64,000 nucleotides of DNA. Origin: Vicinamibacterales bacterium. Its GTDB lineage: Bacteria > Acidobacteriota > Vicinamibacteria > Vicinamibacterales > JAMQPK01. Both the position numbers and the translations under genes were made by a program. The notes below the pieces were generated by a model, which was not told where the DNA came from, ran no database searches, and was given only the letters and a program-made list of their open reading frames with translations. Positions within the stretch are counted from its first letter, which is position 1. Each line of letters starts with the position of its first letter. Positions 36,558 through 64,000 of this stretch are shown here, piece by piece. The stretch spans positions 17,668 to 81,667 of the forward strand of contig CAWBPA010000007.1 in assembly GCA_963790545.1 (NCBI GenBank), in the 5' to 3' direction.

Positions 36558-37499
36558 CTAGTGATCCCATGAGGCCGCGGTGATTCTGTCCGAAGGCCCG
36601 GCTGGCTCGATCAGGTCAAGCGCGAACCGCATACGCCGCAACAGGACGCCATGGTCGCGACAGATGCCGCTGATCATGGCAGTCTGGTCCGCTGGAAGTC
36701 GCGAATCGCAATCAGAAAAGTGGAAATTTCGCGACGCTCGAGAAGTGGCTGGCAGATCCACGATGCTGCCGACGACGCGCACGCCTTCGATGTTCCAGCG
36801 ACGCTTGGTCGGATCGTCGTCGATGAATCCCGCCGGCGTCAGTCCGATATCCGGGTTCTGAAGCAGCTCGCGAACGAGCAGGTGTCCCCCCTTCCCCGCC
36901 CCGTATATCAAGGCTTTGCTGCCACGCGTGCGCCGTTTGCGGAGATATTCGTCTGCCTTCGTGATCATCACTCGAGAACACACCAGCAAAAAGGCGAGGA
37001 TGGCGCCATCGGTCACGAACACGCCGCGCGAGAACCCGACGAACCGGTAGAGATACACCAGCAGGAGAACCGACGCCGCCAGGCCAAGAACCAAACCCTT
37101 CAGGATGGTGATGAGCTCTGGTGATCCGAATGTTGAGCTTGCCTGGCGATACTTGCCAACCCACCAGAGGCTGGCCAGTTGCGCGGCCACCACGAGTGGA
37201 AACGACCTCACAAAATAGGGGATGAACTGCGAAAATTGCGGCTCCGCAAAACGAATGCTGAACGCCGCGTAGTACGCGAGAACGATCAGGCCAACGTCCA
37301 GCAGGACTTCGTAGACCCGATATCGGTACGTCAGCTCAGACACGAGCGGCGTCTGTGAACTGGCATCTTCTTCAGCCGCGTCCGCTTCCGATGGATTGAC
37401 ATGACCTAACACGATGCCGAGCCCCATCAGAAGCAGCGTATACAGGCCTGTCAGCGTTGCCGCATAGCGGAGGCTGAGATACTGGAAGCTTAGCGCCAC
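36558..37499 (-). CDS. N-terminal 4-TM + Rossmann-like module of a CapD/PglF/WbaP-type polysaccharide biosynthesis protein; the catalytic C-terminal domain is absent
   Basis: TM helices, then KALIYGAGKGGHLLVRELLQNPDIGLTPAGFIDDDP...VRVVG. At 313 aa it is much shorter than full-length family members. Confidence 0.45.
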   Translation of the reverse strand: MALSFQYLSLRYAATLTGLYTLLLMGLGIVLGHVNPSEADAAEEDASSQTPLVSELTYRYRVYEVLLDVGLIVLAYYAAFSIRFAEPQFSQFIPYFVRSFPLVVAAQLASLWWVGKYRQASSTFGSPELITILKGLVLGLAASVLLLVYLYRFVGFSRGVFVTDGAILAFLLVCSRVMITKADEYLRKRRTRGSKALIYGAGKGGHLLVRELLQNPDIGLTPAGFIDDDPTKRRWNIEGVRVVGSIVDLPATSRASRNFHFSDCDSRLPADQTAMISGICRDHGVLLRRMRFALDLIEPAGPSDRITAASWDH

Positions 37500-38381
37500 G
37501 CCCCTCCGATCGCAGCCAGACAGTAAAGGAGGAATACGGCCTCACGCTCAGTGGCTCCCAACCGCACAAGGCGGTGCGAGCTGTGGTCCCGTCCGCCCAC
37601 CATCGCGCGGCGGCCTGCGAGTCGCCTCGTCAGCGTCACGAGGAAGGTGTCGAAAATTGGCACCAGCAGAATGAGCAACGGGACGAGCAGAATCGAGACA
37701 AGCTCAGTCTTCAAGCCCGGCATCGACAGAAGACTGACACCGGCCAAAAACGACCCGATGAAATGACTGCCCGAGTCGCCCATGAAGATGGAGGCCGGCC
37801 GGAAGTTGTAAATAAGAAACCCAATCATCGCGCCCACGAACGCGGCAAGGGCCACAGCCGTCGCGCTCTCCGCAGTGGCGAGCACGATCAGATAGAACGT
37901 CCCCCCGATAGCGGCAACACCCGCCGCCAGGCCGTCGATGTTGTCGAGCAAGTTGAACGCGTTGGTCATGCCGACGATCCATGCGAAGGCCAGAACCAGG
38001 TCGAGGACCGGAAGCCCGGTGATGTTGAATTGGCAGCGCGTAGTAAATCGCCACCGCTGCCACAACCATCTGACCGACGAACTTCGTGACGGGCCTGAAG
38101 CCGCCGTAAATCGTCCACCACGCCGAACGCGAACATCAGTCCGGAGCAGACCAAAAGTGGGAGAGCGGCCGAAGCTCAGCCGTAACAGCGACCCCAATGA
38201 CAGTGGCGGCGGCCATGGCGACTCCACCAAGCAGCGCCACCGGTTGCCGGTGCCAGCGATCTCGCTGCGGGTAGGACAGAATCTGATAGTGAGAGGCGAT
38301 TGACCGAACTAGAGGGGTGAGGATTGCGGCGGCTGACAAAGGCGATGCCAAACGGTACGAGATCTCAATCGCCCGTAGCAC
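37490..38381 (-). pseudogene. WecA/MraY-family polyprenyl-phosphate HexNAc-1-phosphate transferase (GT4 family), at least 3 frame breaks
   Basis: The gene is spread over four frames. Pieces include RDRWHRQPVALLGGVA (38136..38381), GVVDDLRRLQ (37966..38154), and NAFNLLDNIDGLAAG and IFMGDSGSHFIG (37490..38230). Confidence 0.65.
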
Positions 38382-38613
38382 GGCGATACTGTACCGCAGC
38401 GGGTCGCTTTAGGAAAGAGGCCGTCGCGTCTCGGATTGACTGAGTTGGATCACCGGAATAGACTCAAGATTCAAGATGTCGCGACTTGTCTGTGATTCGA
38501 CAGTGAAGAATAGTCCCTCGACTTCAGCTGATGTCCCCTCGCGAACCTCTGGAAATGACGAGCCGCGCCACGGCGGCCCCCGAGCCTGCTCGTGGGGATG
38601 AGCCGTCCGGACC

Positions 38614-39764
38614 ATGCCGTCGCCCACCGTATCGGTTCTGGTTCTCAACCTCAACGGCTGTGAGCATCTGAAATCCTGCCTGCCCACGCTCGAAGCCCAG
38701 ACCTATCCGAGGAATCGTTACGAAATTGTCGTCGTGGATAACGGTTCCACCGACGACTCGCTCGCCTTCGTTCGAGACGCGCCATCCCGACGTCCGCATC
38801 ATTTCGTACAGTTCGAATCGAGGTTTTGCCGAGGCCTACAACGCCGCGGCAGCGCTCTGTCAGACCGAATTCGTCGCGTTCCTGAACAACGATACCCGCG
38901 TGGCCCCAGGCTGGCTCATGGAACTCATGGCAACCGCGAATCGACATGGCGCAGCCTGCGCCGCCTCCAGGATTCTGGACTGGACCGGCGAGCGCATCGA
39001 CTTCGCTGGCGGGTACGTTTCGTTCCTCGGTCATTCCTGGCAGCGGGACGCAGGCCAGCCAGCAACGAAAGAGTATGGGGAAGATCGGCTGCTGTTTGCC
39101 TGCGGTGGGTCCATGCTGGTCAATCGCGCCACGTTCCTTGATGCCGGCGGCTTCGACCCTCAGTTCTTTGCCTATTTCGAGGACGTGGATCTCGGTTGGC
39201 GATTGTCATTGCTGGGACACACGACCGTGTTCGCGCCCGCTGCGGTAACGTATCACCGGTTGCACGGTACTGCGGGGCGATGGGCCGCGGCACCTCGCCT
39301 TCGACTGTACGAACGCAATGCGCTCATGATGATCTACAAGAACTACGAGCGCGAGACGCTCGCCCGCGTCTTCCCGGTGGCGGTGGCGCTGGCGCTTGCC
39401 CGCGCGTGCGCTCACACGGCGCTCGATCCCCGAACCTTCGAGTTCGGCAACAGGATTCCGGATCGGGTGCCTGTGTCGCCCCGCACAATTGCCCAGCTGA
39501 TTGGCCTCGAGGATTTCGCGTGTCAACTTCCCCTCCTCGCCGAGAAACGGCAGGAGATTCAGCGACGCCGGCAGCGCACTGACCGAGAGCTATTTCCGCT
39601 TTTCTCGGATCCTTTGCGGCTGCATGACATCGACACCCAGTACGAAGCAGACTGCACGCTCGCTGATTGCGGAGTTCGAGATAGACAAATGGTTTGGCGC
39701 GACGCGAGCCGTATCGCGATGCCTCCAGTCGGTCACCAGCCGTGGGACGTCGACGTCGATATCA
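38614..39764 (+). pseudogene. Family-2 glycosyltransferase module 1 (paralogue of 39765..41253; may be one two-domain protein with it), at least 2 frame breaks
   Basis: VSVLVLNLNGCEHLKSCLPTLEAQTYP..EIVVVDNGSTDDS (ORF 38614..) is followed by NRGFAEAYN, FLNNDT, YFEDVDLGWR and RLYERNAL (ORF 38726..). It then shifts into the frame of ORF 39501... Confidence 0.6.
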
Positions 39765-41253
39765 ATGAGCGGGCTCGACCGGCCCGTCGAGGAAGTGGGT
39801 CAGCCGGGCGAATTCGATCGCCCACTCGTGACGGTTGTCATTCTCGTGGCGGGTACGCCGGTTCATCTTCCCGAATGCCTGGCGTCGTTGCGCACGCAGA
39901 CCTATCCGGCCGAGAGTCGCGAAGTCATTGTCGTTGACAATGGATCGGTCGAGGATCCAACGGCAGTGGTTGAAGCGGACTATCCCGGGGCACGCGTGAT
40001 CAGAAACGCGACGAACCTTGGCTTCGCCGCCGGCAACAACATAGGCGCCCGTGCGGCAAGAGGGAAGTTCGTCGCGTTTCTCAACGACGACACGAGGGCA
40101 CATCCTGACTGGCTAATGCGGCTCGTCACGACGGTTCAACGTCGTCGCGTGGCATGCGTGGCAAGCCAGATCCTTACGTGGGATGGTCAGCACATCGATT
40201 TTGCCGGCGGTTCGTCAAACTTCGAGGGCAAAGGCTTTCAGAGCGGTTACGGGCGGCCCGCAGGCTGCAACTTCCGAACAGCCGTTGCTCTTCCCTTGCG
40301 GCGCGGCCATGCTGGTGGACCGCGAGACGTTCCTCAACGCCGGCGGCTGGGACGAAGGGACGTTCGCGTACTACGAGGATGTCGAGCTCGGCTGGCGCTT
40401 GTGGCTGTTGGGCGAGGAAGTCTGGCTCGTGCCACAGGCCACCGTTTTTCATAAACACCACGGGACCTCGGGCCGATGGAGCGAGGTGTCGCGTGTTCGC
40501 TTGTACGAACGTAACGCGCTACGCATGCTCTACACCCATCTGGAGCGTGAGAACCTCGAACGCGTGCTGCCCGCAGCGCTGCTGCTTTCAGCCGACCGCG
40601 TCCTGCTCCATGCCGGCTTTGGTCGCGACGGTCGGGAGCATGAGTGGGACGGAACCTTGCCGATCGCGAGACCAGGCATCCTCCGACGGCTGATCGCCGC
40701 CTCGCGCGCTTTGCCGCTCTCCTTCAAACGGGAACTTGTGGCCCGGGGTGCAGTCAAATATCTGTCCGCCTCTGAGAACCTGAGCCGCGTCGGTGTGCGG
40801 GGTCTCTTGGGTGCGGCAAGAGCGGCAATTCGGACCGCTCCACTCCGCCAGGACCCACGACCGTGCGGGTTCGAACCTCGTACCTGATTGAACGTGGGGC
40901 GCAGGACCCGGTTTTCGATCGGTCCAGTGAGCTGATTCCGGCGACTTCTGGTGCCGGGATTGGTGGGATTGACAGAGTTTCTGGAGAGTTTGCCGCAGCT
41001 CGAGCAGCGACGAACCTGGTTGCAGGCGCGTCGCCGACGCAGCGACCTCGACATCCTCGGGCGCTTCAATCAGCATTGGCTGTCCCACTCTCCAGCCGCT
41101 CGCCAGCAACCGCACGACGAGCTGCAGAAGCTCCTTGTCGAGACGTTCCGCATCGCCGAGATTGCTGGTATCCACGCGACCAGACAGTCCGTTGGTGCGG
41201 AAAGCGCGTCGTACAGGCCGAACGGTAGACCAGCGCTGAAACGGGTTCCCTGA
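39765..41253 (+). pseudogene. Family-2 glycosyltransferase module 2, at least 3 frame breaks
   Basis: VTVVILVAGTPVHLPECLASLRTQTYP..EVIVVDNGSVED, NLGFAAGNN and FLNDDT (ORF 39501..40454); YYEDVELGWR and RLYERNAL (40183..40887); tail in 40863.. and 40951..41253. Confidence 0.6.
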
Positions 41254-41255
41254 TC

Positions 41256-43576
41256 TTGTCACTAACTGCTTCGCTCAGGCGCGTCCTCAACAGGTCGCCG
41301 ATAGCTCTGCTTCGAAGCGGAATCGAGCGAGTGTGCTTCCATCGCCTGCTGCTTCGAGAGCTGCACGTCGTCGAGCAGCAGACGACCGGGTCGAGCCGAG
41401 GCCGCGATCCGGTGGATGGGGCCCGTCACCGTTGACGGCGTCGCTCGGGAAGGACTTTCCTGTCCTCTGAACTCGGATCTGGAGTTCCACGTAACCAACT
41501 GGTCCCAAGGCCGCATCGTGGTCTGGTGTTCTCTGTTGCCCGACGCGGGGGCCGAGGACTGCGGCGAAGTCGAGTTTCGCATGACAGTGCGCACGGCCGA
41601 TGGAGACTGGGAACGAACGACATCGCTGCGGACCGGGCCACGTCGGGAGTGGGCGAAATCAAACGTGGCGGCGCTTGCATGTTCCGCTGGCCGGATGGGA
41701 TCGGGATCTTCATGTGCACCTTTCAACCCAGGTGCCACCCGGCGTGGCAGGCGGCTCCGCCCGTGTTGTCTGGGGTGATCCACGGGTCGAACGTTGGCGA
41801 CCGGCCGGTGAACTCTTGAGTTCTTTCTTGGCTTCCATTCGTTTGATGGGATTGAGAGGCACGTTCAGGCGCCTCCGACAGCTCGGCGCCCAAAGTGACG
41901 ACAACCTGACATATCAGCGCTGGCTCGCCCGCAACACCCTGACGGCTGAAGATCTTCGGCAGATGGCGGCAGAGGCGTTCCAGTTCACCTATAGACCGAA
42001 AATCAGCATCGTAACGCCAGTGTACAACACCGATCCTCGATGGCTACAGGCGTGCATCGACTCGGTGCGGCGTCAGGTCTACGAGGATTGGGAACTCTGC
42101 CTCTGCGACGACGGCTCGAGCTCTGAAGCGACGGTGAATGTACTGCGACAATCTGCCTCCGATCCCCGTGTGCGCATCGTCCGCCTGGAGTCGAACCAGG
42201 GTATATCCGTTGCATCGAACGCGGCGCTTGCCATGGCCACAGGCGAATTCGTCGCCATGCTGGATCACGACGATGTGCTTGCCCCGGAGGCTCTTTATGA
42301 GGTGGTGAGATTCCTCAACAATCAGCCGGCTGCGGACATGATCTACAGCGACGAGGACAAGCTCGACCAGAGCGGTCGGCGTTGCGACCCGCACTTCAAG
42401 CCCGACTGGTCGCCGGACTATTTCCTCACCTGCATGTACACGTGCCACCTCATGGTGCTCCGCACCAGTCTTGTGGCAGAGGTTGGTGGCTTCCGTGCCG
42501 GGTACGAGGGCTCGCAGGACTACGATCTCGTTCTGCGGGTCATGGCGAGAACGTCGACGGATCCACCACATCCGGAAGGTTCTGTATCACTGGCGCAAAG
42601 TGAAAGGTTCCGCCGCCGAATCAGGCCTGTCAAAGCCATGGGCGGTCGATGCCGGCCGTCGAGCGATCGTGGATTATGCAATGCGGGCTGGCGTGGACGC
42701 TGCGGTCGAGCCGGGCGCTGGGCCCGGGCAGTATCGCCTGCGCCATCGTGTGCGGTCGCGCCCGCTCGTCTCGATTCTCATGGTCGGTGCCGACGCTCGG
42801 CGACCAATCGGCGCTTCTGATACGGTTTCCCTGCTGCGCTGCGTGCGCCGTCTGCAAAAGACCACGTACGACAACTACGAAATCATCGTGGTGGATGACG
42901 GCAGCCTGCCCGACACGACTCGCGCCGCGCTGCACACCGATCCGCAGCCGCCCGGTAACCTGTCCATCAAGCAGATCTGGCCGGCCGCGTGAACTTTGGT
43001 GTCTGCGAAGCGCGCGGGACACACCTCGTCATTTGCTGCGATCTGGTAGAGGTCATCAAGCCCGAGTGGCTCACCTCGCTGCTCGAGTACTCCCAACTGC
43101 CGGCCGTAGGCGCAGTCGGCGCCAAGCTTCTGTATCCAGACGGCCGCATTCGTCACGTTGGTCTTCTGCTTGGTGTTGGCGGCATTGCTGCGCTGCCATT
43201 CCACGGGCTGCCCGGATGGTCGCCAGGGTACATCTCGAGTGCGGTAAGTATCCGGAACTACTCGGCGGTGAGCGGTTCGTGCATGATGACTCGTCGTGCG
43301 GTGTTCGACGAAGTGGGGGGATTTCAGTCGACGTTCGGAGCGGATTTTACCGACATCGACTACTGCCTGCGCGTGCAGGCGGCCGGCTACCGGATCGTCT
43401 TCACGCCTTACGCGGAACTCCGCTACCGCGGCCCCGATGCCGGGGCGTTCATCACAACGAATGGGCAACCGGCGGAGGAGATGAGGCGTGTCTGGGCAGA
43501 TGTCCTGGCCAATGATCCTTACTACAACCCGAATCTCACCCGTGAGTTCCTCGACTATCGACCGCGGCTGGATTAG
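41256..43576 (+). pseudogene. Large glycosyltransferase with an N-terminal unknown domain and two GT2 domains, at least 4 frame breaks
   Basis: ISIVTPVYNTDPRWLQACIDSV...CDDGS...LDHDD...YSDEDK (41600..42820). VSILMVGAD...EIIVVDDGS (42471..42992). AVGAKLLYPDGRIRHVG...DIDYCLRV (42989..43576). The start is uncertain (TTG 41256). Confidence 0.6.
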
Positions 43577-44247
43577 CCCGCCTTCCGCATCACCAGCAAA
43601 GTCTCAGGACCGTTCCGCTGAAAGAGCTCGAGCTCGAACGGCAGCTGCTTGTTGAGCTTGTGGACGAGCTCCATCAATTCCACAGCTCCCCACACGTGAT
43701 AGTGAATGCTGTAGTCGATGCTCATCAGGTGTCGTACTTCTTCATCTACCTGATCTTCCCGCTCGCGCTTGTTGACAAGCCGGCTCCACTCCTCGAAATG
43801 CTCGCGCTTTGACCAGGCGGGGCCTTCAGTAAAGTCGCGCATCACGTGGTCGATCGGCGTACAGGGCCGATCAACGTCAAACGTGAACCGCTTGTCCGGG
43901 AACCGCCATATAGAGAATGCCGCCGATCTTCAGGGTGCGGAAGAGATTCTGAAACGCCAGGATTGGGTTTTGGCAGTGCTCGATGAAATGATTGGCAATC
44001 ACGAAGTCCTGAGTGGCGTCCTGAATACTCTGCAGCGTTTCGCCGTCGTCGATGATGTCGGTTTCGACCAGTCGAAATTCTGATAGCTCGACGTACTGCT
44101 TGCGCAGATCTGCTGCGGACATCCGATCGACGTACTTGACCTTCACCGTCGGGAGGTACTTGCGAGCGGTTGGTGAAGTGCACCAATTTCGAGCCCTGCT
44201 CCCCGAAGAAACGTGGCCGCAACCGACTTGCGCACGTCGCGGATCAT
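43573..44247 (-). pseudogene. Class I SAM-dependent methyltransferase, 2 frame breaks (about 44152 and about 43887)
   Basis: MIRDVRKSVAATFLRGAGLEIGALHQPL / KYLPTVKVKYVDRMS...ANHFIEHCQNPILAFQNLFRTLKIGGILYMAVP / DKRFTFDVDRP...HFEEW. The reading cccggacaag needs cccgacaag to stay in frame. Confidence 0.65.
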
Positions 44248-44377: not shown

Positions 44378-47036
44378 TCACTTCTCGGTTTGATCGATGC
44401 CCTCAGGGATGATCACCCGCACGACTCGCATCTGGTTGAAGGTTCCCGTCAGTGTGCTCCGCGCGTACACCACGAGGTCGTAAGTGCCTGCGCCTAGTCC
44501 CGGACGTTCAGACCATAGCCGGAGTTTGTGAACCGACTACCGAAGAATCCACCAACGTCTGGCCGAACGCACTCCCATACGTGCCTAGACCAAGGAAAAA
44601 CGGCGAGCCGCCGCACCGCGATAGGCCCAGGCGTGAATCGTGTCGCACCCGTTCCCCCACTGGACACCACGATCGCTGCCCCGTGCCCCAGTATCACGAG
44701 ATACCACGTGCCATTGGACGGGCCGAAAGGGGCGATGTCGGTCTTGCCGTCGCGGTAAGTCCCCGGGAACGGGCTCGACGCTCCCGTTCCGGCCATTGGA
44801 CGCCCGCAGCGGTCCACCGTCCCGGGTAGCACGGATACCAGGTGCCGAATCGGAACGGCCAGAAAGACCGCGATGTCGGTCTTCCCTCACCGTGGCGATC
44901 CCCGGGAACGGTGGCGTCGCGCCCGTTCACCCCACTGGAAGCCGCCGGTCGGTCGCCGGTGCACGAGATCGCCCAAAACCACGGTGCCATTGGACGGGCG
45001 AAAGACCGGGATATCGTCTTCATCGCCGTCGTAATCCCCGGGAACGGCACGACGATCCGTGCCCCATTGAAAGCCACGGCGGTCCCCGTCGCCGAGGCGC
45101 GCGAGATACCAGGTGCCGTTAGACGGGCGGAAGACCGCCACGGTGATGCCGTCACCGTCGTAAATCGCCAGGCAAACGCAGGCACGTCGCTCCCGTTGGC
45201 CCCATTGCAACGCCTGCGGAGGTCTGCGGGCCGCAACGGGCTGGGCATATACATGAATGGTGCCATTCTGAGCCGGGCGAAAGACCGTGATATCGGCCCT
45301 GCCGTCGCCATCGAAATCGCCGTTCCCGCGTCCTGGCGGCGCTGTTCACCCGAACGGGGCGTCCGAATAGCTGCCGGCAGGCTGGATTCCGTCATTGGCC
45401 TCCGCGTAGATGTAGTACTCGCCGGGGGAGAGTCCGGCTGTATTCCACACGACTGCCCAGCCCCGATTGGGACGGAAGCGATCGCCGTCTTCCCATTCGA
45501 CGGGTTAAGGTCGTATCCCAATACAACGTGACGGTCGTAGCTGTCGCCGTCGGCGTCGGAGCCGGTGAATCTGATCGTGTAGGTCCCTAAGCGAAACAGG
45601 CTTGGCCGTCAGCTTGATGTCATCGATGTGAAACGTCCGCGCTGTGCTGAACTCGTGGGGATCCAGCCGAAAAATGCGCTTGTGGGCGGCCGACCAGATC
45701 TCGGCGGCTCCAGTCGCTTCGAGCCCTCCATCGGGCGCAGCCGATAACGTCGCGAGATCGATGGTGTAGCTGTTCGTTCCTGCCCAAACAAGATATCCCG
45801 CGAGGTCGTTGCCGTAAACGATCGAGCCACGGGCCCGAGGTCCAGAAGAGTCGCGCCACGGAGCCCAATGCCAGGTCGAACGGTCCGTCAATCCGTAGGC
45901 GATAGGTCAGATATCTGAATTCGACGTATCAATCGGGGTCGCGTTGTTGGTAGTGTAAGAAGGGCACATTTGGATCGGCGTTCGTGTTGGTCGCGTGCAT
46001 CTCACCGTCGAAAGACACGTTCGTGATGCCGCCGCTGGCGGCCAGTTGAACATCCTCGGGTCCGTCCATGTCCCACGGATTCCCCAGCACGCTGGTCGCG
46101 TAATCTTCGCCAGTGACACGTGAGGGATCGGTGACTCGAATCGCCGGCGGGTTGTTGATGCTGAAGGCCTGGATCGCCTCAGCGGCGCCGACGCGTACGC
46201 GCAGTCGATAATTCCCCGGTGGCAGAACACCATAGTTCCAGTTGAAGCCAGTTGACGGCACCGGTCGCGACAGTAAGGATGACCGTCGGGCCTGCCGAAT
46301 CCAGCACCTCGATCGTGGCCCCGCCACCGCCGGTCCATTGAATCACCTGCATTGCCGCGCCCGGCGCGTTGTCGGCCGCGGTCAGCCGTACCCAGTCGAA
46401 GAAGACCTGGTGACCGGCATGCGCATGATTTGGATCAATCCGAAGACCTCGCGGCATGCCGGCTGTCCAAGGCGTGTCCTGGCTTGCCTGGGTCAGATCT
46501 GCGACGTAGACTTTGAAGCCCGCAGACCGCCGTTTCCATGAAGCGGAGGCCGAAGCCTGGGTCCGCTGGATCGGCTATTGGCGAATGAAACCAGTACACG
46601 TGCGGAACCTCGCCTGCCAGTCCGAACTCATGCGAAACGCGAGCTTGCGGTATCGGTTCGTATCGATGGGAAAATTGCGCCCGTTCTTGCCTGGATTGAT
46701 GAGCCCCCAATAGCCCCGGTGCAGGAATGAGATCGAAGTGTCAGCCGCTCCGCCGGGGGTCAGGGCCGTCGTTCCTCCGGCCAACCCGCCCGAAACACTG
46801 AAGGTCGCCCAGTGGCCGGTCTCATAAGGACTGAGCCCGATGTCAGCGGCATTGCTCATGTCCCAGGGATCGCCTAGCACTTCAGTCGCGTAGTCGGGGC
46901 CGGCTGCGAGACGAGTGGGAAAGTTCTGGATCACAACTTGAGCGCCAGCCGGTGAGGCGACGACTAATCCAGCTATCGTCATCGCCACCGCAACCGCCAG
47001 TCGGCCTCGAAGGTTCACGTTATTGAAGAGGCGCAC
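44378..47036 (-). pseudogene. Large secreted protein: two 'DYATxVLGxPWDM' domains plus a C-terminal FG-GAP/VCBS-like repeat array; at least 6 frame breaks
   Basis: A signal peptide opens ORF 46575..47036. Fragments follow in ORFs 46179.., 45929.., 45505.., 44887.., 44585.. and 44494... ([18 protein letters not shown]) units recur. The final segment ...GAGTYDLVVYARSTLTGTFNQMRVVRVIIPEGIDQTEK stops at 44378. Confidence 0.55.
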
Positions 47037-47242: not shown

Positions 47243-47864
47243 CTACGGCCGCGACGTGTCGGGCGGGACAGCCGCGGCATGGATGCCGAGTGCCGGGCCA
47301 AGGACGCTCAGGAGTTTCTGCGTGGCCTGGCTCACCGATTCACGATCGGTGTGAATGACTGCATCGGGCGCGTTCGGGGGCTCATACGGATCGGAGATGC
47401 CCGTAAAGCGATCGAATCTCCCCAGCCAGCGCCTTGCGATAAAGGCCTTTCACGTCCCTGCTGATGAGCGTTTGCAGCGGTGCTGTGACGAAGACTTCCA
47501 GGAACGTAATCCCAGATTGCTCTGCCGATCGTCGAACCTCTCCGCGAGTTTCTGAATACGGAGAGATCGCTGCAACAACCACCAGGACCCCATGAGAAGC
47601 AAGCAATCGTGCGACAAACCCAATCCGCCGCACATTGATGTCGCGGTGGTCCTTCGTGAATCCAAGTTCGCTGGCCAGGTGCATCCGGATGCTGTCGGCG
47701 TCGAGGACCCCGACGGAGAGACCTCGCGTCCGCAGTTCACCCGAGAGCGCGGAGGCCAAAGTCGGATCTTTGCCCGCACCTGAAAGGCCTGTCAGCCAGA
47801 TGATGCTACCGCGAGGGCGGAGAGGACTGACTGTTTCCGACATGGGCGTCGGCGTATCCACCAT
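47243..47864 (-). CDS. Adenylylsulfate (APS) kinase, one frameshift near 47405 and a non-canonical Walker A
   Basis: [65 protein letters not shown], then in another frame [11 protein letters not shown]. The P-loop reads GAGKDPT instead of G[SA]GKST. Confidence 0.75.
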
Positions 47865-47983
47865 AGTCTGCCTTTCACGATGCTCACGAAGGCCCGGTCC
47901 TGGCTCGGCAAAGCCTTTGACCAGTCGTCACCAGCAGCGTATTGTAAAGTCCCTAAAATGGCTCTGCACACGATGCTGGATAT

Positions 47984-49230: not shown

Positions 49231-49232
49231 GG

Positions 49233-55721: not shown

Positions 55722-55758
55722 GGGCAACTTCGAGATACCCGGGGAGCATTTTCGTTCG

Positions 55759-56539
55759 ATGACCGGCGGCCTTCTTCTGGCCGTGGGCTATCGGGATCTT
55801 CTGCGAAACCTGGTGGCTAAGGATCTGAAACTGAAGTACCGCGGATCGGTGCTCGGGTTCCTCTGGTCACTTGTCAACCCGCTCGTGATGATCGTGGTTT
55901 ACACCTTCGCGTTCACGTACGTGCTGAAAGTTCCGACAGAGCGATTTGCGTTTTTCGTGCTCATCGGCGTGCTGGCCTGGACGTTCTTTGCCGGCGCGAC
56001 GCTTGGATCCTCGAACGCGATTGTCGACGGCGGCAGCCTGATCAAGAGCGTGGTCTTCCCGCGCATCATTCTGCCGGTCTCGGGCGTGGTCTTTCATCTG
56101 GTGCAGTTCCTGTTGAGCGTCAGCGTGTTGCTGCCGGTGTTGCTGAGCTGGTACCGGCACGCCGCTCGGTGCGCAGATGCTGCTGTTCCCTGTGTTCGTG
56201 CTCCTGCAGGTGCTCTTCGTCACCGGGGTTGCGCTGTTGCTGTCGACGGCGACTGCGTTCATGCGCGACCTGCGGCACCTGGCCGAAATCGGCATCAGCG
56301 TTGCGTTCTGGGCCACACCCATCATCTACGAGTACACATTCGTTCCAGAGGAGTTCCGCTTCGCGATTCTTCTGAGCCCCATGGCCTCATTCATCCGCGC
56401 CTATCAGGATATCTTCTACTATCTGGTGTGGCCCGATTTGTCGATCTGGCTCGTGGCGGTCACTTACGGGGTGGGTGCGTTCGTGTGCGGTCTCAGCGTC
56501 TTCGTGGGCTACGAGGATCGGTTTTCTGAGCAGGTCTAG
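55759..56539 (+). pseudogene. wzm: ABC-2 type polysaccharide exporter permease (Wzm-like), copy B, 1 frame break near 56155
   Basis: About 90% nt identity to copy A. MTGGLLLAVGYRDLLRNLVAKDLKLKYRGSVLGFLWSLVNPL. ORFs 55693..56529 and 56177..56539. Confidence 0.7.
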
Positions 56540-56541
56540 GG

Positions 56542-57307
56542 ATGCCCGCAGTCATCATTGCCGATCGGGTGTCGAAACGCTTTTACCTACACCGCAACCG
56601 CACGTCCTCGCTGAAAGAACGCTTCCTCGGTCTCTTCCATGACAGGCATCGAACCGAGCTCACGGAATTCTGGGCTCTCCGTCAGGTGTCGTTGACCATC
56701 CAGGCGGGCGAATCGGTGGGCATTGTGGGTCGCAACGGCTCGGGCAAGAGCACGTTACTTAAGCTGATCGCGGGCATTCACACGCCGACCGAGGGGCGAC
56801 TTGTTGCGCGGCGGGGCTCGCGTATGGCCAGCCTGATCGAGCTGGGGGTCGGCTTTCATCCCGAGCTGACCGGGCTCGGAGAACGTGTATCTCAACGCGT
56901 CAGTCTACGGGCTGACGCGGGCCCAGTGTGGATCGGCTTTACGGCTCCATCGTCGAATACGCCGGCATCGGTCGGTTCATCGAGGAGCCGATCAAGAACT
57001 ACTCATCGGGGATGGTGCTTCGACTGGCTTTTGCGGTTGCCGCGCACCTCGACCCTGATGTGCTGCTGCTGGACGAGATTTTTGCTGTGGGCGATGCCGA
57101 TTTTCAGCAGCGGTGTTTTCAGACGATGCGTGAGTTTGTTGAACGGGGACGGACGATCGTGTTCGTGTCGCATTCGTCCGGAGGCCGTCAGGCAGATGTG
57201 CAGCCGCGTGTGCGTGCTGGATGCAGGGCGACTGGTGTTTGATGGTGGGGTAGACGAAGGATTGCGGCCGCTACGACGAGATGTTTCAGGCCAGCCATGG
57301 TCGGTGA
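56542..57307 (+). pseudogene. wzt: Polysaccharide ABC exporter ATP-binding protein (Wzt-like), copy B, about 4 frame breaks
   Basis: Walker A GRNGSGKSTLL, YSSGMVLRLAF and LLLDE. Relative to copy A there are extra bases at about 56878 (gggctcggagaac vs ggaatcgagaac), about 56925, about 57180 (tcgtccggagg vs tctccagagg) and about 57268. Confidence 0.65.
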
Positions 57308-57444: not shown

Positions 57445-57930
57445 ATGCCATATTCAATAGTCGTCGTGCTACTAGTAGCCGGTGTTGTGTCTTCACCGGT
57501 CTCGGCGAATGCCCAAATGGTGCAGGAGTTACGACTTCGCTGGGACTCGCCCTCGGCCGTGGCGGCAGGGCAGCCGAAGCCGGACGCGGCCCCGGCGCCG
57601 CACTTCACCCCACTTCAGCGCAAACGGACTCCCGGTTCACTACCGCGTCGACGCAGCCTGGAGTTGTCTCCTGATCAGATCGTTGTCGTCGGGTTGGATG
57701 CGCAGGGCAAGGAGATTTATCGCGACATCATGCCGGACCCTCGTATCCTTCGCGCCGAGAGTCCGGGCCCGACGGGGGAGTTAACCGGCGAGTTGCTCTA
57801 TCATGCCAGCACGGAGTTTCTCATCGCTTTTCCCGACGACCAGGAGATCGTGGAGCTCCGGCTCTATCATCCGCGCTGGACGGGAGGTGCTTTCGCCTTG
57901 GACCTCCTGGTCTCGATTGCTCTCCGGTAG
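57445..57930 (+). CDS. Secreted hypothetical protein (about 160 aa)
   Basis: Intact ORF with signal peptide MPYSIVVVLLVAGVVSSPVSANA. I recognised no motif. Confidence 0.45.
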   Translation: MPYSIVVVLLVAGVVSSPVSANAQMVQELRLRWDSPSAVAAGQPKPDAAPAPHFTPLQRKRTPGSLPRRRSLELSPDQIVVVGLDAQGKEIYRDIMPDPRILRAESPGPTGELTGELLYHASTEFLIAFPDDQEIVELRLYHPRWTGGAFALDLLVSIALR

Positions 57931-57980
57931 GTCGAATCGCCACCGGGCTATACTTCACCATCGCTCGGCCCTCTTTCATC

Positions 57981-60081
57981 TTGGTGATCCTCGCTTCCGG
58001 AACATTCGGGTTCTTCCAGTTGTCGCTCGATCTTTATCGATTCCTTCTTGACAGACTTTCGACAATCCGTCCGACGGATCGCCGAAACACGTTACGGGTT
58101 CGAGCCACACTTGTCACCCGACTGGACATCGTCGTTCTCGCGCTCCTGTTGGCTTCTGTCCCCCTGGATGTGTGGGGCGAGCCAGTCACGACCATTCGCA
58201 ACAACGGTAATCCCGACAACCGGGTGGATCTGGTCATCCTGGGTGACGGCTACACCGCCGGTGAGCTAACCAAGTACGCCGCCGATGTCGAGGCAATCGT
58301 TCAGGGCTTCTTTGCCGATGAGGCCTTCCGTGAATACCAGCGCTATTTCAATGTCCATCGGATCGACATGACGAGCAATCAATCTGGGGCTGACCACCCG
58401 GATCGAACACCTCAGGTCTTTAGAGATACGGCCGTCGATGCCACGTACCAACTTCGCGGGTATTCAGCGGTTGATTTGCGTCAACTTCACCAAGGTGAAC
58501 GACGTCGTGACCGCAAGCGTTCCTGTCGGCAGCCGCGACGTTCTCATCGTCCTCGTAAACGATGAGGAGTACCGGAGGATCGGGAGGGGCCGTAGCAGTC
58601 GCATCGATTCACGACTTGGCGGTTGAGATCGTCTTTCACGAAATCGGCCATAGTTTCGCCCTTTTGGCAGATGAGTACTGGGACTCGGGTCCCCCGTTCT
58701 GCGTTCTGGACGAGCCGTGGGAGGTCAATGCCACACGACAAACCGATCGCGCGCTGATCAAGTGGAAAAACTGGATCGACCAGAACACTCCTATTCCAAC
58801 ACGAGGATCGACATCAGGCGTACCCGGGCTCTACGAAGGGGCGAAGTACTGTGCCAATGGACTGTACCGTCCCACTAACGCGTCCAAGATGCGTTTTCTC
58901 AATTTCCCCTTCGAGCAGATCAACTCCGAACAGCTCATAAAACGGATCTACAACTTGGTGTCCCCTCTCGATTCGGTCGAGCCGCCGGAGTCGAGTCTGA
59001 CGCTATCGCAGGGGAATACTCACGAGTTCCGCGTGACCGTGCCAGCTCCGCTGACTCACGCCCTGGACGTTAGCTGGACCGTAGATGGTGACCCTGCCGG
59101 CAACGGTACCACCTTCACCTTGGACTCGAGCCTGTTGGCCCTGGGGAACCACGTGGTAGAGGTTGTCGTAAATGACTCCACGCCGATGGTCCGTACGGAC
59201 TCGGAAGGCCTTTTGAATGAGCGTCGTGGTTGGACGGTGACTGTACGGAGTGGCCACACGAATCCTGGCGATTTCGACGGTGACGGCAAGAGCGACGTCT
59301 CGGTTTTTCGCCCGTCGAATGGCACGTGGTACATCATGAGTCCTGGCACCGGAATCGCCAAGGCCTTCCAATGGGGGAACTGGCTCGACGTGCCCGTGCC
59401 CGGAGATTATGACGGCGACGGCCAAAGACGACATCGCGGTCTTTCGGCCGTCGAATGGCACGTGGTATCTCGTGTACTCGGCCACGGGAACCACGGCGGG
59501 TGTCCAATGGGGGAACGGGAGCGACGTGCCCGTCCCGGGGATTACGACGGCGACGGGAAGACCGATATCGCGGTGTTTCGACCTGCCGACGGCACCTGGT
59601 ATCTTGTGTACCCGGCCACAGGAACCACCGCGGGCGTCCAATGGGGGAACGGGCTCGACATACCCGTGCCCGGGGATTACGACGGCGACGGCCAGACCGA
59701 CATCGCCGTCTTTCGCCCGTCCAATGGCACGTGGTACTTGGTATCGGCCACTGGAAGCACGGCGGGTGTCCAATGGGGGAACGGGCTCGACGTGCCCGTG
59801 CCGGGGACTATGACGGCGACGGGAAAACCGACATCGCCGTCTTTCGCCCGTCCAATGGCACCTGGTACCTCGTGTACTCGGCCACTGGAACCACGGCGGG
59901 TGTCCAATGGGGGAACGGGTTCGATGTGCCCGTGCCCGGGGATTACGACGGCGACGGGAAAACCGACATCGCCGTCTTCCGCCGTCCAATGGCACCTGGT
60001 ATCTCTTTATCGAGCACAGGGACCACGGCGGGCGTCCAATGGGGGAACGGCCTGGACATTTCGATCGTAGGGCGTCCCTGA
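57981..60081 (+). pseudogene. Peptidase-M64 (IgA-peptidase-like) zinc metalloprotease domain fused to an Ig-like domain and an FG-GAP/VCBS-like repeat array, at least 5 frame breaks
   Basis: NRVDLVILGDGYTAGE...FNVHRID..SNQSGAD (57981..), RDVLIVLVNDEEY (58438..), FHEIGHSFALLADEYW (58562..), then about 6 units of [22 protein letters not shown]...GVQWGNG. The start is unresolved. Confidence 0.6.
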
Positions 60082-60635
60082 GAATCTCTCGCTCAGCCAA
60101 TAAGTGATCGGTACTGCACCCATGCGGAACACCGGTCGCAACATTCAGCCTGTACGGCAGGGTGCCGGCGTCCCGCCTTTCTTAGGCTGCGTTACTGCGT
60201 CGTCTTAATACGTTCTTGACGCCTACACAGGCGCAAATGTTTGGACCGGAGCCGCCCGAGTCCTTTAGCTATCGTTCGCTGATTTTGGACCACCACTGAC
60301 TCTGTCTCTGTACGTTCAAAGTATCAATTCGAACGGAACTGTGGTTATTGACGTTCGAGACACCGCGCAGCTCCCTACCGAATCTGGGGCGTCTCCACGG
60401 CGAGTCGGCAATTCGTCCCGCATATCCCGAAGCCAACGCTACGCCAAAGACGCCAATGGAAATAAACGAGGAAAACTCGGACCCTCTGCTCCCTGGAGAA
60501 TCACCTGACTCCGGCCGGACTGATAGCTTCCTCGCACTGGCAAAAGTGGCCCGACTTTGCTAGGTCGACCGGTGCTGCGGATCGAATGCGCCGTCGCGCC
60601 AGAATAGTGCCGGCGCGGTCGAGCCCCGAGGTGAA

Positions 60636-62800
60636 TTGGCCCTTGCGGCGTGCTCGATGGCGCTTGGTCTCTTTAGTGTTGGCACGTTGGTCGCGGTCGG
60701 GTATTTCAACTACTCCACGCTGCCATGGTTCGATGCGTGGGACCACTGGATTGGTTATCTGAGTTCCAGCGATTCACTAACGTTTCTGTTCAGCCGGCAC
60801 AACGAGCATAGGATTCCGGTCACGCGGCTTCTCTATTTCGCCGATCGGATCTGGTTTAGCGCCGACACACGGCTCCTCCTTTGGTGCAGCTTCCTCGCGC
60901 AGTTCGGCAGCGCGCTGATGTTGTATCGACTGGTTTGTTCATCGGCAGACCTGACCTTCGCGCGTCGACTTACGTCTTGGGTATCATTCTGACGTTCGCG
61001 TTTGCGGCTTCGCAGTGGATCAACTTTACGTGGACGTTCTGTGTGGGTTTCCTCGTGGTCTTCTTCGCAGGTATCGCGGCTTTCGTCGCCTTGAAGAATA
61101 GCGCGGAAAGTCCGCGTCCGCTGTCGACGACATGGGTGATCGTGTCTGTCATGATGGGGTTGATCGCGACAGGGAGCATGGCCAACGGCCTCCTGGTGTG
61201 GCCCTTAATTGTGCTGATGGCGGCAACTTTGGCCTGCCGAGGAGGGTCATGGGTGGCTTGGCAGTCGCTGGACTGACCGTGTCATTGGCCTATATGCAGG
61301 GGTACGAGCGAACAGCGGAAGACTGTGGCCCATTCTTTGATGAGGGCTCCAGAAGTCCTTGTATTTGACTTGTCTACCTCGGCTCGGCTGTGGACGAGCC
61401 GTTCGTGGCTCTTACCAAAGCGATCGGACTTGAGTGGGAGGCCTACGTGTCTTTTAGCCGCAATCGTTGGCTCGATTGGGTCGCCTGGTTCTTCTATCTC
61501 GTCATCGGCGCCATTCGTGAACGACCCAAAAACCGCCCGAGCCGGATTGCGATCCTATATGTTCTTGCCTTCGTGGCTGGTTCTAGCGCCCTGACGGCTT
61601 TGGGGCGCGTGCAGTTTCCTATGGAGGTTGCATTGACCTCGCGATATGTCACGCCATCCCTCCTGTTCTGGGCTTGCCTATTCGCGCTCGCCGTCTCGGC
61701 CTCCGCAACGGGGCGTCCATCGAGCAGCCTAGTCCGCCGCTATCGGCTGCGTGTTGCCGCCCTCTTTGCAGCCTGGTTCGTCGGCGGCCTTGTACAGTTG
61801 CCCAAAGCTGCCTATGCGGTCGAGTCAGAGCGGTTTCTTAGCGAGGGGGAACATGCCCTCATCAACGGCGTTTTCGCCGCCGAAGGTTGGCAACGATTCT
61901 ATAGATCGCCTGGCGCAATGATTCCGGTAGTCCGTCATTTTCGTGATCGACGCCTCGCCTCGTTTTCCCGTGAGTGGACGCGATGGATCGATGACCCTGC
62001 CCCTGCCCATTTCCAGGTGATGTCAGAGGATTTGGATTGTATTGGCGCGTGGGAATCATTGGATCCTGCAGGCGGATCATTCAGCCCAGCCGTTATCGCA
62101 ACAGGTTGGGGCTATGACCGGCGCTTTCGTCGTGCTCCAGAGCGAATAGTGTTTGTTGATGCGGCGAGACGCATCGTGGGCTTCGCTGCCGTAACGCGCC
62201 GACGTCCCGACCTGCTCCCCGGTTACCCCGAGATATCCAGCGATCGGGTCGGTTGGGTGAGTTTCCTGCCCGCGGCACGACGTCGGACCTTACCGCCTAT
62301 CTCTTGCTCGGTGACGGTCGCAGTCTGTGCCGGTCGGGCTATGCGAATTCGGGGGCGCTATCTGACGGCCGAAGCTGCCAAGGCGGGCGACGCCATCACG
62401 GGTGTTGACGTGAGCGCCCAGGGTCCTTGGGTTCGCGATCTGCCGGCACCACGGCTTCAAGCCCTCCGTTCGCGACTCATACCTGGAGCTCACATGCGCT
62501 GCACTTGCGGACCGGCGTACTTCGGCTGGGTCCCGTGAAGCTACGGCCGAATTGAGCATCGGTCTTCCGGTGATTACGGGGGCTGCCGCTTCTGCCATTC
62601 GAATCTCCGCGATCGAACGCGCGACAGGTCGGGTGCTGGCCACGAGCAATCCACCGGCCGGTATGTCGACCTGGGATCTCTGGAGGCTCGATATGCCGGC
62701 CGGGGCTCCCGACATGATGATTGATTACGTAGTTGAACACGGGGAAACAGGTCCGGGTAACTGGGTCATGGTGGGTGTACCGAGATTGATCAAGCCCTAA
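60636..62800 (+). pseudogene. Polytopic membrane protein with a C-terminal soluble domain (possible polymerase/GT-C-type, function unknown), at least 5 frame breaks
   Basis: Fragments: 60636.. (..FSRHNEHRIPVTRLLYFAD..), 60881.., 61132.., 61325.., 61390..62538 and 62552..62800. The first two-thirds contain many TM helices. Confidence 0.45.
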
Positions 62801-62869
62801 ACTCTGGCGCAGATGCACGTGGGCTGAAACATATTGCAATTATGGATATGCATGTTCCGAACGATGAAT

Positions 62870-64000
62870 ATGGCGGATGAATCGCCCGATCGCCACCCGA
62901 ATACGGGTCATTCCTCGCTGTGGAACGGGTCTATCGCAATGGGTCAGGCGCTCCTGATCGTTGCCGTTCTGTTCGTGTTTTTGCGAGGGTGGAGTCGCGA
63001 CATTCGAGTCCCTCTCGGTTTTTCGAGCGACAGTCTGTTGGCCCTCATGCAAAGCAAGAGCACAGTTGACAACGGCTGGTGGTGGTTCAATCCGATGGTT
63101 GGCGCGCCCTTTGGCCTCGACGAGCTGGCGTTTCCTGCGAACAGCAACGTGGATCAGGCGATTGTGTGGGCGGTTAGCCGTATGACGCCTGACTTCGCGC
63201 CGGCCACGACGCTTGCATGGGCGATCACCGTGGTTCTGAGCGGCCTGTCGGCGAGTTGGTGCATGCGACAGGTCGGTGTATCGACGAGCAGTTCGTTCGT
63301 CGCCGGAACCCTGTTCGGGTTGAGTCCTTATGCCCTGTATCGACATATCGATCACTTCTGGATGGTCATCTACCTCGTGCCGTTTGCGTGCGCGGCCGCA
63401 CTAATCGTGGCTTCTGGACAAGTGAAAGACGCGCGGGTACTGGAGGCGATCCGGCGTCTTCCTTCTCGCCGGATGTGCGCTCCTGGGGTTTAACTACGTT
63501 TACTATTCGTTCTTCGCATCTTTCATTATCGGCGTCGCGCTAGTCCTGGGATTCCTGACCCATCGGAACAGGCCCGTTCTGATGGCCGGCGGCCTCGCCA
63601 TCGTGCTCGTTGCGGTCTGCACCACGCTCAACCTGGCGCCCAGCATCTATTCGTGGAGCCTTCACGGCCGGCCAATGATCCTGCGCGACAAATTGCCCGC
63701 GGAATCAGAAGTCTATGGTCTCAAGATCAGACAGCTCGTGAGCCCGGTCTTCAATAATTCGCTGCCACCTCTGCGGCGATGGGCGGAGAGGGAAGGCGCG
63801 GCGCAGTTTCCCCTGGAGACCGAGAACACCAAATCCCGGCTTGGCGTTGTGGGTACATTGGGGTTTCTCATTCTCATGAGCTTTTGGTTTCTTCCCGGCG
63901 TTGCCCAACGATTCCATTCGTCGAGGCTGCTGCTCGGGGCGAGTCGTCTCACGCTGGCCGCGATCCTGCTCGGCACGATCGGCGGGTTTGGGAGTCTGTT
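62870..64000 (+). CDS. Polytopic membrane protein (GT-C-like, function unknown), copy C. Continues beyond the window, with at least 1 frame break near 63440-63460.
   Basis: LALMQSKSTVDNGWWWFNPMVGAPFGLDELAFPANSNVDQAIVW... (ORF 62834..63493). An open frame then runs to nt 64000 (..FLLAGCALLGFNYVYY..ESEVYGLKIRQLVSP..LGTIGGFGSL). Confidence 0.55.

Follow-up and report, generated by a model that had tools for sequence, protein, structure and literature searches.

Gene content of the locus

The window (the whole stretch of 64,000 nucleotides that was analysed) falls into a conserved first part and, from 36.6 to 64 kb, an island predicted from its gene content to be a strain-specific surface-polysaccharide gene cluster of the Wzm/Wzt ABC-transporter-dependent type, in a metagenome-derived genome of Vicinamibacterales (Acidobacteriota). 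Pfam matches to a Glycos_transf_4/CoA_binding_3 initiating transferase, ABC2_membrane, ABC_tran and four GT2 modules are all clustered here, which places an initiating transferase, Wzm, Wzt and glycosyltransferases together, the combination that marks a predicted glycan cluster of this type. The order of the island genes is syntenic with that in L001, where the same cluster type has uninterrupted genes of 1036, 846, 420 and 256 aa. Once its frames are corrected, the locus reads as a glycan cluster of the ordinary Wzm/Wzt type in which the transporter pair is duplicated.

A preliminary description of this DNA had equated the zone of dense frame disruption with the glycan locus. The zone does contain the glycan genes, but it extends beyond them to an M64-like peptidase, FG-GAP/BACON proteins and an adenylylsulfate (APS) kinase (Table 1).

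Table 1. Genes and other features of the window, with the frame disruptions assigned to each
Feature	Position	Strand	Frame disruptions and basis
Isolated +1 insertion in a PSD/PSCyt (DUF1592-type) gene	10806..10827	-	four references agree
Three +1 insertions shortly before the island	31703..33924	+	in a PQQ dehydrogenase and one conserved gene
Boundary of conserved core and strain-specific island	36287..36560	.	frameshift density rises here
WecA-like initiating transferase (Glycos_transf_4 + CoA_binding_3)	36561..38351 (aligned 36,615-38,351)	-	6 frameshifts
GT2a, two GT2 modules	38516..41235	+	frameshifts at ~38783, 39648, 40264, 40839, 40951
GT2b, two GT2 modules	40996..43605	+	frameshifts at ~41392, 41654, 42558, 42943-42977
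Methyltransferase	43576..44163	-	at least 1 frame switch near 43,903 (Viterbi junction)
Secreted protein, no family match	45351..47036	-	seven frame segments, at least 6 switches
APS kinase	47255..47924	-	at least 1 frame switch near 47,416 (Viterbi junction)
wzm-wzt copy A (ABC-2 permease + ATPase)	48041..49966	+	frameshifts at 48144, 48166, 48459, 49036, 49613
Secreted protein	50.0-50.66 kb, within 50003..53240	-	Viterbi segments
FG-GAP/BACON repeat protein	50.9-53.2 kb, within 50003..53240	-	Pfam BACON + FG-GAP
Membrane protein, paralogue of 62,852-64,000	54555..55674	+	eight 1-2-nt gaps between copies
wzm-wzt copy B	55756..57267	+	frameshifts at 56159, 56873, 56928, 57181
M64-like peptidase with C-terminal FG-GAP repeats	57673..60066	+	at least 6 frame switches
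730-780-aa membrane protein, family without Pfam model	60606..62797	+	~10 frameshifts
Membrane protein, continues past window end	62852..64000	+	at least 1 frame switch near 63,452

Density of frame disruptions

Frameshifts were called by aligning homologous proteins to the DNA with a purpose-written frameshift-aware dynamic-programming aligner, which made 0-1 spurious calls per 850 aa on intact homologue pairs at about 57% identity. It was used in place of the chaining of tblastn matches, which missed most junctions. Between 36.6 and 64 kb we found 34-39 frame-breaking indels in 12,554 reference-covered nt (2.7-3.1 per kb), against 4 solid frameshifts in 20,736 covered nt of the first 36.5 kb (0.19 per kb). 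The rate ratio is about 16 (binomial p = 6e-13), and is 8 if doubtful calls are included (8 first-half events). The roughly ten-fold excess reported earlier is thus real and somewhat understated.

The step in density is sharp, at about 36.3-36.6 kb. Open reading frames of 900 nt or longer occupy 81% of positions 1-36,500 and 38% of 36,500-64,000. In a Viterbi trace based on codon usage, the first 36.5 kb falls into about 50 frame segments and the last 27.5 kb into about 90; the island stretches that lack references add at least 25 more frame switches. Because this trace detects just about 46% of verified events, the estimate for the whole of 36.6-64 kb was raised to 64-95 frame breaks. An earlier count of about 50 corrections had the order of magnitude right and was low.

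Breaks in the island genes

The WecA-like gene has ±1 frameshift sites at about 38163, 38096, 38026, 37499, 36745 and 36698, twice the minimum of three previously proposed. Five sites are common to four references of 52-63% identity. The sixth event (-1) appears with all four references as well, placed at 36,650-36,698, near the C-terminal end of the alignment, where it falls under the end-of-alignment filter. After correction the Glycos_transf_4 match spans 3-159/160.

The two double-GT2 genes (38,516-43,605) carry 9 frameshifts with several references, and up to 14. For GT2a the calls come from concordant dynamic-programming alignments to L001, L002 and P0028, with weaker calls at 38575, 40998 and 41167, and tblastn against the 1036-aa homologue of L001 runs through frames 1, 2, 3, 1 and 3. 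The GT2b breaks are backed by up to six references (P0002 at 60% identity, L001, P0028, P0004, P0005 and P0008), with weaker calls at 41199-41253.

In wzm-wzt copy A, the events are based on alignment to the L001 homologues and on 1-nt gaps relative to copy B; four lie in wzm (48,041-49,227) and one in wzt (49,233-49,966). Near 49,613-49,640, wzt A shows clustered gaps of 1 and 2 nt within a few bases. All four events of copy B are insertions at sites outside runs, with one in wzm (55,756-56,536) and three in wzt (56,542-57,267), where about four in 770 bp had been counted. The ABC_tran match of wzt B grows from 1-45/137 in the raw ORF to 1-136/137 in the corrected gene. Copies A and B do show the 1-nt differences on which the preliminary description drew.

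Several further genes show the same picture. The joined translations of the methyltransferase and the APS kinase match Methyltransf_11 over 20-94/95 and APS_kinase over 1-151/152, respectively. The secreted protein at 45351..47036 has no Pfam match, its switch count comes from codon usage alone, with no reference, and it holds the sole in-frame stop of the whole Viterbi path. Across the two genes within 50003..53240 the Viterbi trace finds at least 6 frame switches, and the FG-GAP repeats there are spaced by 132, 134, 130 and 133 nt, not all multiples of 3. In the M64-like peptidase, successive near-identical 44-aa repeats are read in frames 2, 1 and 0, and the Peptidase_M64 match extends from 134-205 in the raw ORF to 3-205/302 when the frames are joined. 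The breaks in the 730-780-aa membrane protein rest on the agreement of five references (P0207-P0210 and P0212); two compensating pairs, 61445/61480 and 62274/62338, are hidden in the apparently intact ORF 61,390-62,538.

The broken genes lie on both strands and comprise transferases, transporters, a peptidase, repeat proteins and a kinase. Most verified genes were hit 3-10 times, whereas wzm B and wzt A took one hit each. As the preliminary description warned, automated annotation yields meaningless fragments here: the gene calls of the record include a 377-aa piece of a protein of about 750 aa.

The edge of the island

Genes at 34,197-36,287 have 87-99% identity to references and zero frameshifts. 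No covered frameshift was found from 33,930 to 36,560, for which P = 0.001 at the island rate. Two short-read contigs match the window up to this region, L163 (93.6% nucleotide identity) ending at 36,286 and L164 (96.6%) at 36,432; both, at 93-97% identity, end or diverge in the intergenic region before the WecA-like gene. Since the relatives with at least 90% identity stop at about 36.3-36.6 kb, where the density also steps up, the position of the step is the edge of the strain-specific island.

First-part proteins have relatives at 90-99% identity. Ten junction-spanning island peptides, searched against 5.8 billion proteins, gave no match above 69% identity. A contig search with the gene adjoining the island returned relatives of at most 76% identity, and the island is absent from all of them. 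We also considered whether sequence of two organisms had been joined into a chimera at 36.4 kb. This is ruled out, as codon usage and G+C content run on across this point; it is also contradicted by the JGI contig L161, which has the same gene order.

Error spectrum, selection and domain recovery

The 39 events, 20 insertions and 19 deletions, are all ±1 or ±2 nt in size. Homopolymers are not enriched at the sites: the mean longest run is 2.79, versus 2.61 at random positions, and the longest run near sites is mostly 2-3 nt. The preference for short G/C runs suggested earlier did not hold, for G/C or for other runs, and the cases followed at the nucleotide level are of an arbitrary base inserted outside runs.

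At most 3 in-frame stops, all doubtful, stand against the 39 frameshifts; a 10:1 excess of substitutions over indels would have led us to expect about 14. The probability of at most 3 stops is 0.0006 at 10:1 but 0.09 at 5:1, which makes nonsense codons a test of no more than moderate strength. The island genes aligned to homologues showed no truncation, large deletion or insertion sequence, and after correction they align almost end to end. Frame correction gives full-length Glycos_transf_4, ABC_tran and APS_kinase matches and a longer Peptidase_M64 match.

The corrected wzm copies share 94% and the wzt copies 92% protein identity, with dS of 0.66-0.77. The dN/dS of reconstructed genes had been put forward as a check on pseudogenisation; between the wzm/wzt copies it is 0.056-0.063, far from the value of 1 that relaxed selection approaches, which speaks against decay, although dN/dS between such old paralogues is insensitive to very recent inactivation.

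Breaks outside the island and in a sister assembly

The same kind of insertion is present in conserved non-glycan genes at 10,827, 31,706, 33,766 and 33,917. The PSD/PSCyt insertion, an extra T by nucleotide alignment, was located at 10,827 by an intact 876-aa protein of 93% identity from L162. Of the three insertions before the island, that at ~31,706 lies in the PQQ dehydrogenase, and those at ~33,766 and ~33,917 lie together in the one conserved gene. Aligned at the nucleotide level, the short-read JGI contig L081 (92% amino acid identity) resolves GAT[A]CGC and GGCTGG[A]A at 33.7-33.9 kb, with the inserted base in brackets.

L162 (ENA ERZ25039555 contig_17018), the closest long relative, is about 90% identical to the window and syntenic with it. 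This contig comes from an ENA metagenome assembly and bears a Flye-style name; many other relatives are Microflora Danica Nanopore genomes. Private +1 insertions in L162 break four genes: those of 1025 and 338 aa, an ADH gene and the gene at window positions 90-719. Both the window and short-read proteins of 95-98% identity have the 1025-aa and 338-aa genes in intact form, and L162 in turn is intact at sites where the window is broken. Private indels thus differ between independent assemblies, a comparison that covers regions outside the island only (the first 16.6 kb for L162 and 33.7-33.9 kb for L081).

Origin of the frame breaks

We consider, with a probability of about 0.85, that the dense frame breaks are consensus errors, left where a long-read metagenome assembly had low depth or strain-variable sequence; most likely they are not a real feature of the organism. 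Three marks of such an artefact were observed, namely 1-nt indels without matching nonsense codons, full-length proteins once the indels are removed, and private indels across assemblies. The 0-36.3 kb core would be common to several co-occurring strains, with deep, concordant reads that allow near-perfect polishing. The island, carried by one strain or existing in several divergent versions, would have received very few or conflicting reads and would be poorly polished for that reason, so that raw-read indels may survive there. We infer both the long-read platform of the 83,334-nt contig and a fall in read depth over the island.

The sites do not lie in homopolymers, unlike those of classical Nanopore error, and the absence of this bias therefore requires very low depth or mixed-strain pile-ups, not ordinary systematic error. 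Homopolymer-type Nanopore error and slippage mutation were both ruled out, as the sites show no run enrichment. Confusion of polishing by the 85%-identical wzm/wzt paralogues was rejected as the sole cause, since the dense zone is 27 kb long and mostly unique sequence. Soil genomes from Nanopore-only Flye/Medaka have been produced at scale (PMC12313526), a near-finished consensus needs about 40-fold coverage (PMC9262707), and apparent pseudogenes are often artefacts that depend on coverage and platform (PMC11017572).

The preliminary description had listed genuine decay, consensus errors and, as far less likely, phase variation, and chose none of them. The data favour the second, disfavour the first and lead us to reject the third. 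Genuine recent pseudogenisation would mean that the need for the glycan was lost, a first hit inactivated the pathway and the island then gathered neutral indels. In its favour, decay of surface-antigen loci is known from some lineages, the step falls at the border of a unit defined by both function and evolution, the strain-specific island, and the low dN/dS of the old paralogues is compatible with a very recent loss. We nevertheless regard this as unlikely. The lesions are not of mixed types: there are 39 frameshifts against at most 3 doubtful stops, and genes that align end to end, free of truncations, large deletions and insertion sequences. Spontaneous bacterial indels are slippage-prone and deletion-biased, whereas the sites here lie outside homopolymers and insertions equal deletions. 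To reach about 3 indels per kb the locus would have had to evolve neutrally for a long time, and deletion bias should have eroded it meanwhile. Moreover, non-glycan genes are equally affected, and insertions that look identical are found in conserved genes beyond the island, together with private ones in the sister assembly. In a further reading the indels would be real, and the 27-kb glycan island of a free-living soil strain, silenced very recently, would have been altered by an unusual indel-only, homopolymer-independent and region-limited mutational process, with the rest of the genome clean, which we find quite improbable.

A mixture, in which a minority of sites are real strain mutations or strain length differences and the remainder are errors from collapsed divergent versions of the island, is highly unlikely in our assessment. 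Several versions probably do co-occur, because same-species contigs diverge at the island edge, and the gap clusters in wzt A at 49,613-49,640 have the look of a switch between haplotypes or of patches of low quality. Apparent frameshifts are a known result of collapsed alleles (PMC8445201). However, the indel spectrum is uniform across genes, with nothing to separate real from artefactual sites. Phase variation or programmed frameshifting would make the breaks reversible switches, or breaks bypassed in expression. Glycan genes are classic targets of phase variation, in which frame changes sit inside long homopolymer or short tandem repeat tracts, mostly one to a gene. Against this, the sites have no homopolymer or short-repeat tracts, genes are struck several times along their whole length (compensating pairs included), and about 20 genes of unrelated function are affected. 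Phase variation is refuted for practical purposes, and the chance left to either process is negligible.

If consensus error is the explanation, one contig may be near-perfect over its conserved core and yet near raw-read quality over a strain-specific island, and genome-wide quality scores would mask such local error. Such islands would give badly wrong gene calls, pseudogene counts, pangenome singletons and glycan-type predictions, and the resulting protein fragments are already in databases. Should the breaks be real after all, this would be a free-living bacterium in which a whole surface-glycan locus has decayed, an unusual case.

Comparison with known systems

The island resembles the decayed O-antigen loci of host-restricted pathogens in that many adjacent glycan genes are frame-disrupted. 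In real decayed loci of this kind nonsense mutations occur alongside slippage indels, deletions and insertion sequences, and each gene has taken far fewer hits. The island, by contrast, has 3 indels per kb, stops are essentially absent and its genes are not truncated.

The likeness to long-read consensus artefacts is closer. There too, single-base indels split genes into adjoining fragments that match one reference protein, and protein-guided correction restores full-length domains. In such artefacts density follows local read support, and here the step in density coincides with the edge of strain-specific sequence. Population heterogeneity, where localised, is a described cause of parts of a long-read assembly being unpolishable (10.1101/2021.08.23.457338). 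Typical Nanopore consensus errors are tied to homopolymers (PMC9262707), but the errors here are not, and a density that shifts about 16-fold at one defined place in a single contig also sets this case apart.

Finally, the locus shares with hypervariable surface-polysaccharide islands (O-antigen/capsule; the Pelagibacter hypervariable region, 10.64898/2026.04.03.716430) its strain-specific glycosyltransferases, methyltransferases and transport genes between conserved flanks, and the same-species contigs diverge exactly at its edge. It differs in its host, a soil member of the Vicinamibacterales, and in that the interest lies in sequence quality and not in island biology. Hypervariable islands of this kind create low-coverage branches in metagenome assemblies.

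Frame disruption along the window

Frameshifts were counted with our own protein-to-DNA aligner, which permits shifts of ±1 and ±2 and, when run on intact homologues ~57% identical to each other, made no more than one spurious call per 850 residues. The references came from the syntenic ENA locus L001, a second locus (L002) and a representative search with the ORF at 61,390-62,538. They covered 12,554 nt of the surface-sugar cluster at ~36.6-64 kb, here called the island, and 20,736 nt of the first 36.5 kb, many of them being 95-99% identical. We also used a codon-usage Viterbi trace, which sees only ~46% of verified events.

The covered part of the island contains 34-39 frameshifts, against only four solid ones in that of the first 36.5 kb (10,827; 31,706; ~33,766; ~33,917). 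This is a 16-fold difference in rate (p = 6e-13), or 8-fold if doubtful first-half calls are counted generously. ORFs ≥900 nt long account for 81% of the first 36.5 kb vs 38% of the remainder, and the trace gives ~90 frame segments in the last 27.5 kb vs ~50 before. Island stretches lacking references show at least 25 more frame switches on this trace and, given its low detection rate, we estimate 64-95 frameshifts for the whole island. In the FG-GAP arrays, near-identical 44-aa units fall in three different frames. The preliminary description had claimed a roughly ten-fold excess of frame disruptions in a glycan locus, which is correct and, in quantity, conservative.

Frame correction extends the Pfam matches, an independent confirmation of the breaks. 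Raw ORFs gave partial matches (ABC_tran 1-45/137, Peptidase_M64 134-205/302, GT2 51-161/168), and corrected translations gave ABC_tran 1-136/137, Glycos_transf_4 3-159/160, APS_kinase 1-151/152 and Peptidase_M64 3-205/302.

Features of the window and frameshifts counted in them
Feature	Position	Strand	Frameshifts	Remarks
DUF1552/PSD pair	first 36 kb
1025-aa PD40/Omp85-type protein	first 36 kb
AMP-binding enzyme	first 36 kb
Radical-SAM protein	first 36 kb
PQQ dehydrogenase	first 36 kb
REP-type palindromes	4644-4889, 33574-33647, 36430-36560
328-aa PMT_2-type glycosyltransferase ORF	29164-30460	-	possible	coding signal in other frame at 29217-29518
Last core gene	35388-36290
WecA-like transferase	3' end ~36,560		6
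Two double-GT2 glycosyltransferases	38,516-43,605	+	9 with multi-reference support, up to 14
Tandem 44-aa FG-GAP repeat gene	44690-45330	-		132-134-nt units
wzm A	48,041-49,966 (with wzt A)	+	4	duplicated segment 48356-49952
wzt A		+	1
Tandem 44-aa FG-GAP repeat gene	50898-51768	-		132-134-nt units
Membrane-protein gene upstream of wzm-wzt B	54497-55552			73% nt identity to 62943-64000
wzm B	55,756-57,267 (with wzt B)	+	1	duplicated segment 55664-57268
wzt B		+	3
Tandem 44-aa FG-GAP repeat gene	59270-60066	+		132-134-nt units
730-780-aa multi-pass membrane protein	60606-62797		~10	two compensating pairs, included in the count, within its sole intact-looking ORF
Membrane-protein paralogue	62943-64000			at window end

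Gene content

The first 36 kb carries ordinary genes, most of them without interruption; a further frameshift is possible in the PMT_2-type ORF. Exact matching places the proteins from this 36 kb on a single 83,334-nt contig present in NCBI and ENA. Many short-read metagenomes contain 90-99% identical relatives of these proteins, and their 90%-identity cluster mates are annotated as Vicinamibacterales or Acidobacteria from metagenome-derived genomes. G+C is ~0.60 throughout the window. G+C-rich REP-type palindromes, such as GTAGCGTCCGGCTT...AGCCGGACG and GGCGGGTCTTTAGACCCGCC, are repeated in intergenic DNA, some in tandem duplicate. They also occur in the tails of three related contigs (L081, L163, L164) and are common to related populations.

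In the island, the wzm-wzt pair (ABC-transporter permease and ATPase) is present twice by segmental duplication. The membrane-protein gene upstream of the second pair has a paralogue at the window end, so a third pair may follow beyond 64 kb. Three FG-GAP repeat genes, linked to BACON domains or an M64-like peptidase, lie amid glycan genes. The 730-780-aa membrane protein, which may be a glycan polymerase or transferase, belongs to a family without a Pfam model (775 cluster representatives at E <= 1e-3); its JGI-contig homologue also adjoins a methyltransferase and an 840-aa unknown protein. As for the double-GT2 genes, a single 1682-aa protein (P0028, from the 6.99-Mb contig of one ENA genome) spans both at 38846-43605, so their boundary is uncertain, as are the frameshifts called within the weakly conserved linker (40.8-41.4 kb).

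The island edge

Frameshift density steps up at the WecA-like gene. The covered part of 33,930-36,560, including genes with 99%-identical protein matches, has no frameshift (P = 0.001 at the island rate). In L163, a same-species short-read contig of 93.6% nucleotide identity, the match ends at 36,286, a few bases from the stop codon of the last core gene, and in L164 (96.6%) it continues only ~140 nt further. The more distant JGI contig L161 keeps the gene order, with a WecA-like C-terminus just 36% identical. The interval 36287-36432 thus marks a hypervariable island edge, and the density step coincides with this evolutionary boundary. A search of 5.8 billion proteins with ten junction-spanning island peptides gave no match exceeding 69% identity.

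Composition and codon usage run on across 36.4 kb and L161 has the same gene order, which makes a chimeric join there unlikely.

The coincidence of step and divergence identifies the dense zone as a strain-specific island, of the type known from hypervariable surface-polysaccharide loci, and the name glycan locus is too narrow for it: the APS kinase, the M64-like peptidase, BACON/FG-GAP proteins and unknown secreted proteins are equally broken.

Event spectrum and selection

Island events comprise 20 insertions and 19 deletions, each of 1-2 nt. Within 8 nt of a site, the longest mononucleotide run has a mean length of 2.79, compared with 2.61 for random positions in these genes. Where sites are visible at nucleotide level, an arbitrary base is inserted outside runs (TCGAG to TCGGAG, TTC-TCC to TTCGTCC, GTT-CCA to GTCGCCA, GAT-CGC to GATACGC).

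In-frame stops are nearly absent, with three doubtful ones in poorly aligned ends vs 39 frameshifts. A random substitution in these genes has a ~3% chance of creating a stop. At the general-knowledge ratios of ten and five substitutions per indel, neutral decay predicts ~14 stops (P(<=3) = 0.0006) and ~7 (P = 0.09), respectively. Truncations are absent from these genes. Furthermore, the wzm and wzt duplicates share 85% of their DNA and 92-94% of their corrected protein sequence, with dS of 0.66-0.77. Their dN/dS of 0.056-0.063 implies strong purifying selection on both copies for essentially all of the divergence.

Sister assemblies

The 449-kb contig L162 (contig_17018, ENA assembly ERZ25039555, also in NCBI) is syntenic with window 1-16.6 kb at ~90% identity. 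Its PSD gene is an intact 876-aa ORF, whereas the window copy has a single added T at 10,827. In the other direction, +1 insertions occur in L162 at positions corresponding to window 660, 3853, 4011, 13,673, 14,117 and 16,091 (its own ~6837, 9300, 9460, 18458, 18906 and 20825). These split four genes (window 90-719, 338-aa, 1025-aa and ADH). Two of them, the 338-aa and the 1025-aa gene, are unbroken both in the window and among short-read proteins 95-98% identical. The two related, same-style assemblies thus each have private single-base insertions, outside homopolymers, in genes that are conserved, which looks like a process of technical error.

Some genes of L001, which belongs to the same ENA series, are split too, but its homologous glycan cluster is intact, so this locus type has no inherent decay. 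Its region 16208-18631 is among those with such insertions, and an Epimerase_2 gene is among the conserved genes split in L162/L001. Protein collections contain fragments of genes split in the sister assemblies.

Origin of the frame breaks

Real, recent pseudogenisation of the island is unlikely. Decay would have to leave indels only, away from homopolymers and with insertions balancing deletions, without truncations and across functionally unrelated genes; moreover, like events occur outside the island and in L162. Less probable still is that some sites are real and others artefactual. Phase variation or programmed frameshifting is rejected, as repeat tracts are absent and most genes are hit several times.

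The explanation we favour is a technical artefact limited to the strain-variable island. Long-read metagenome assembly is the probable source of the contig: its closest long relatives bear Flye-style contig names, and many Nanopore genomes of Microflora Danica, a project using Nanopore-only data, Flye assembly and one Medaka polishing round (PMC12313526), are among its relatives. If several strains of one species shared the soil sample, the common core would receive the pooled depth of all, and the island that of a single strain, or else a pile-up in which divergent versions conflict. Either very low depth or strain collapse could thus produce the island errors. One would then expect the core to be clean, the island dirty and the edge between them sharp, which matches our observation.

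The biological interest is low, and the real worth of the case is as a quality-control warning. A near-finished Nanopore consensus requires roughly 40-fold depth (PMC9262707), and apparent pseudogene counts vary with platform and coverage (PMC11017572). Lastly, localised within-population heterogeneity is a recognised cause of unpolishable parts in long-read assemblies (10.1101/2021.08.23.457338).
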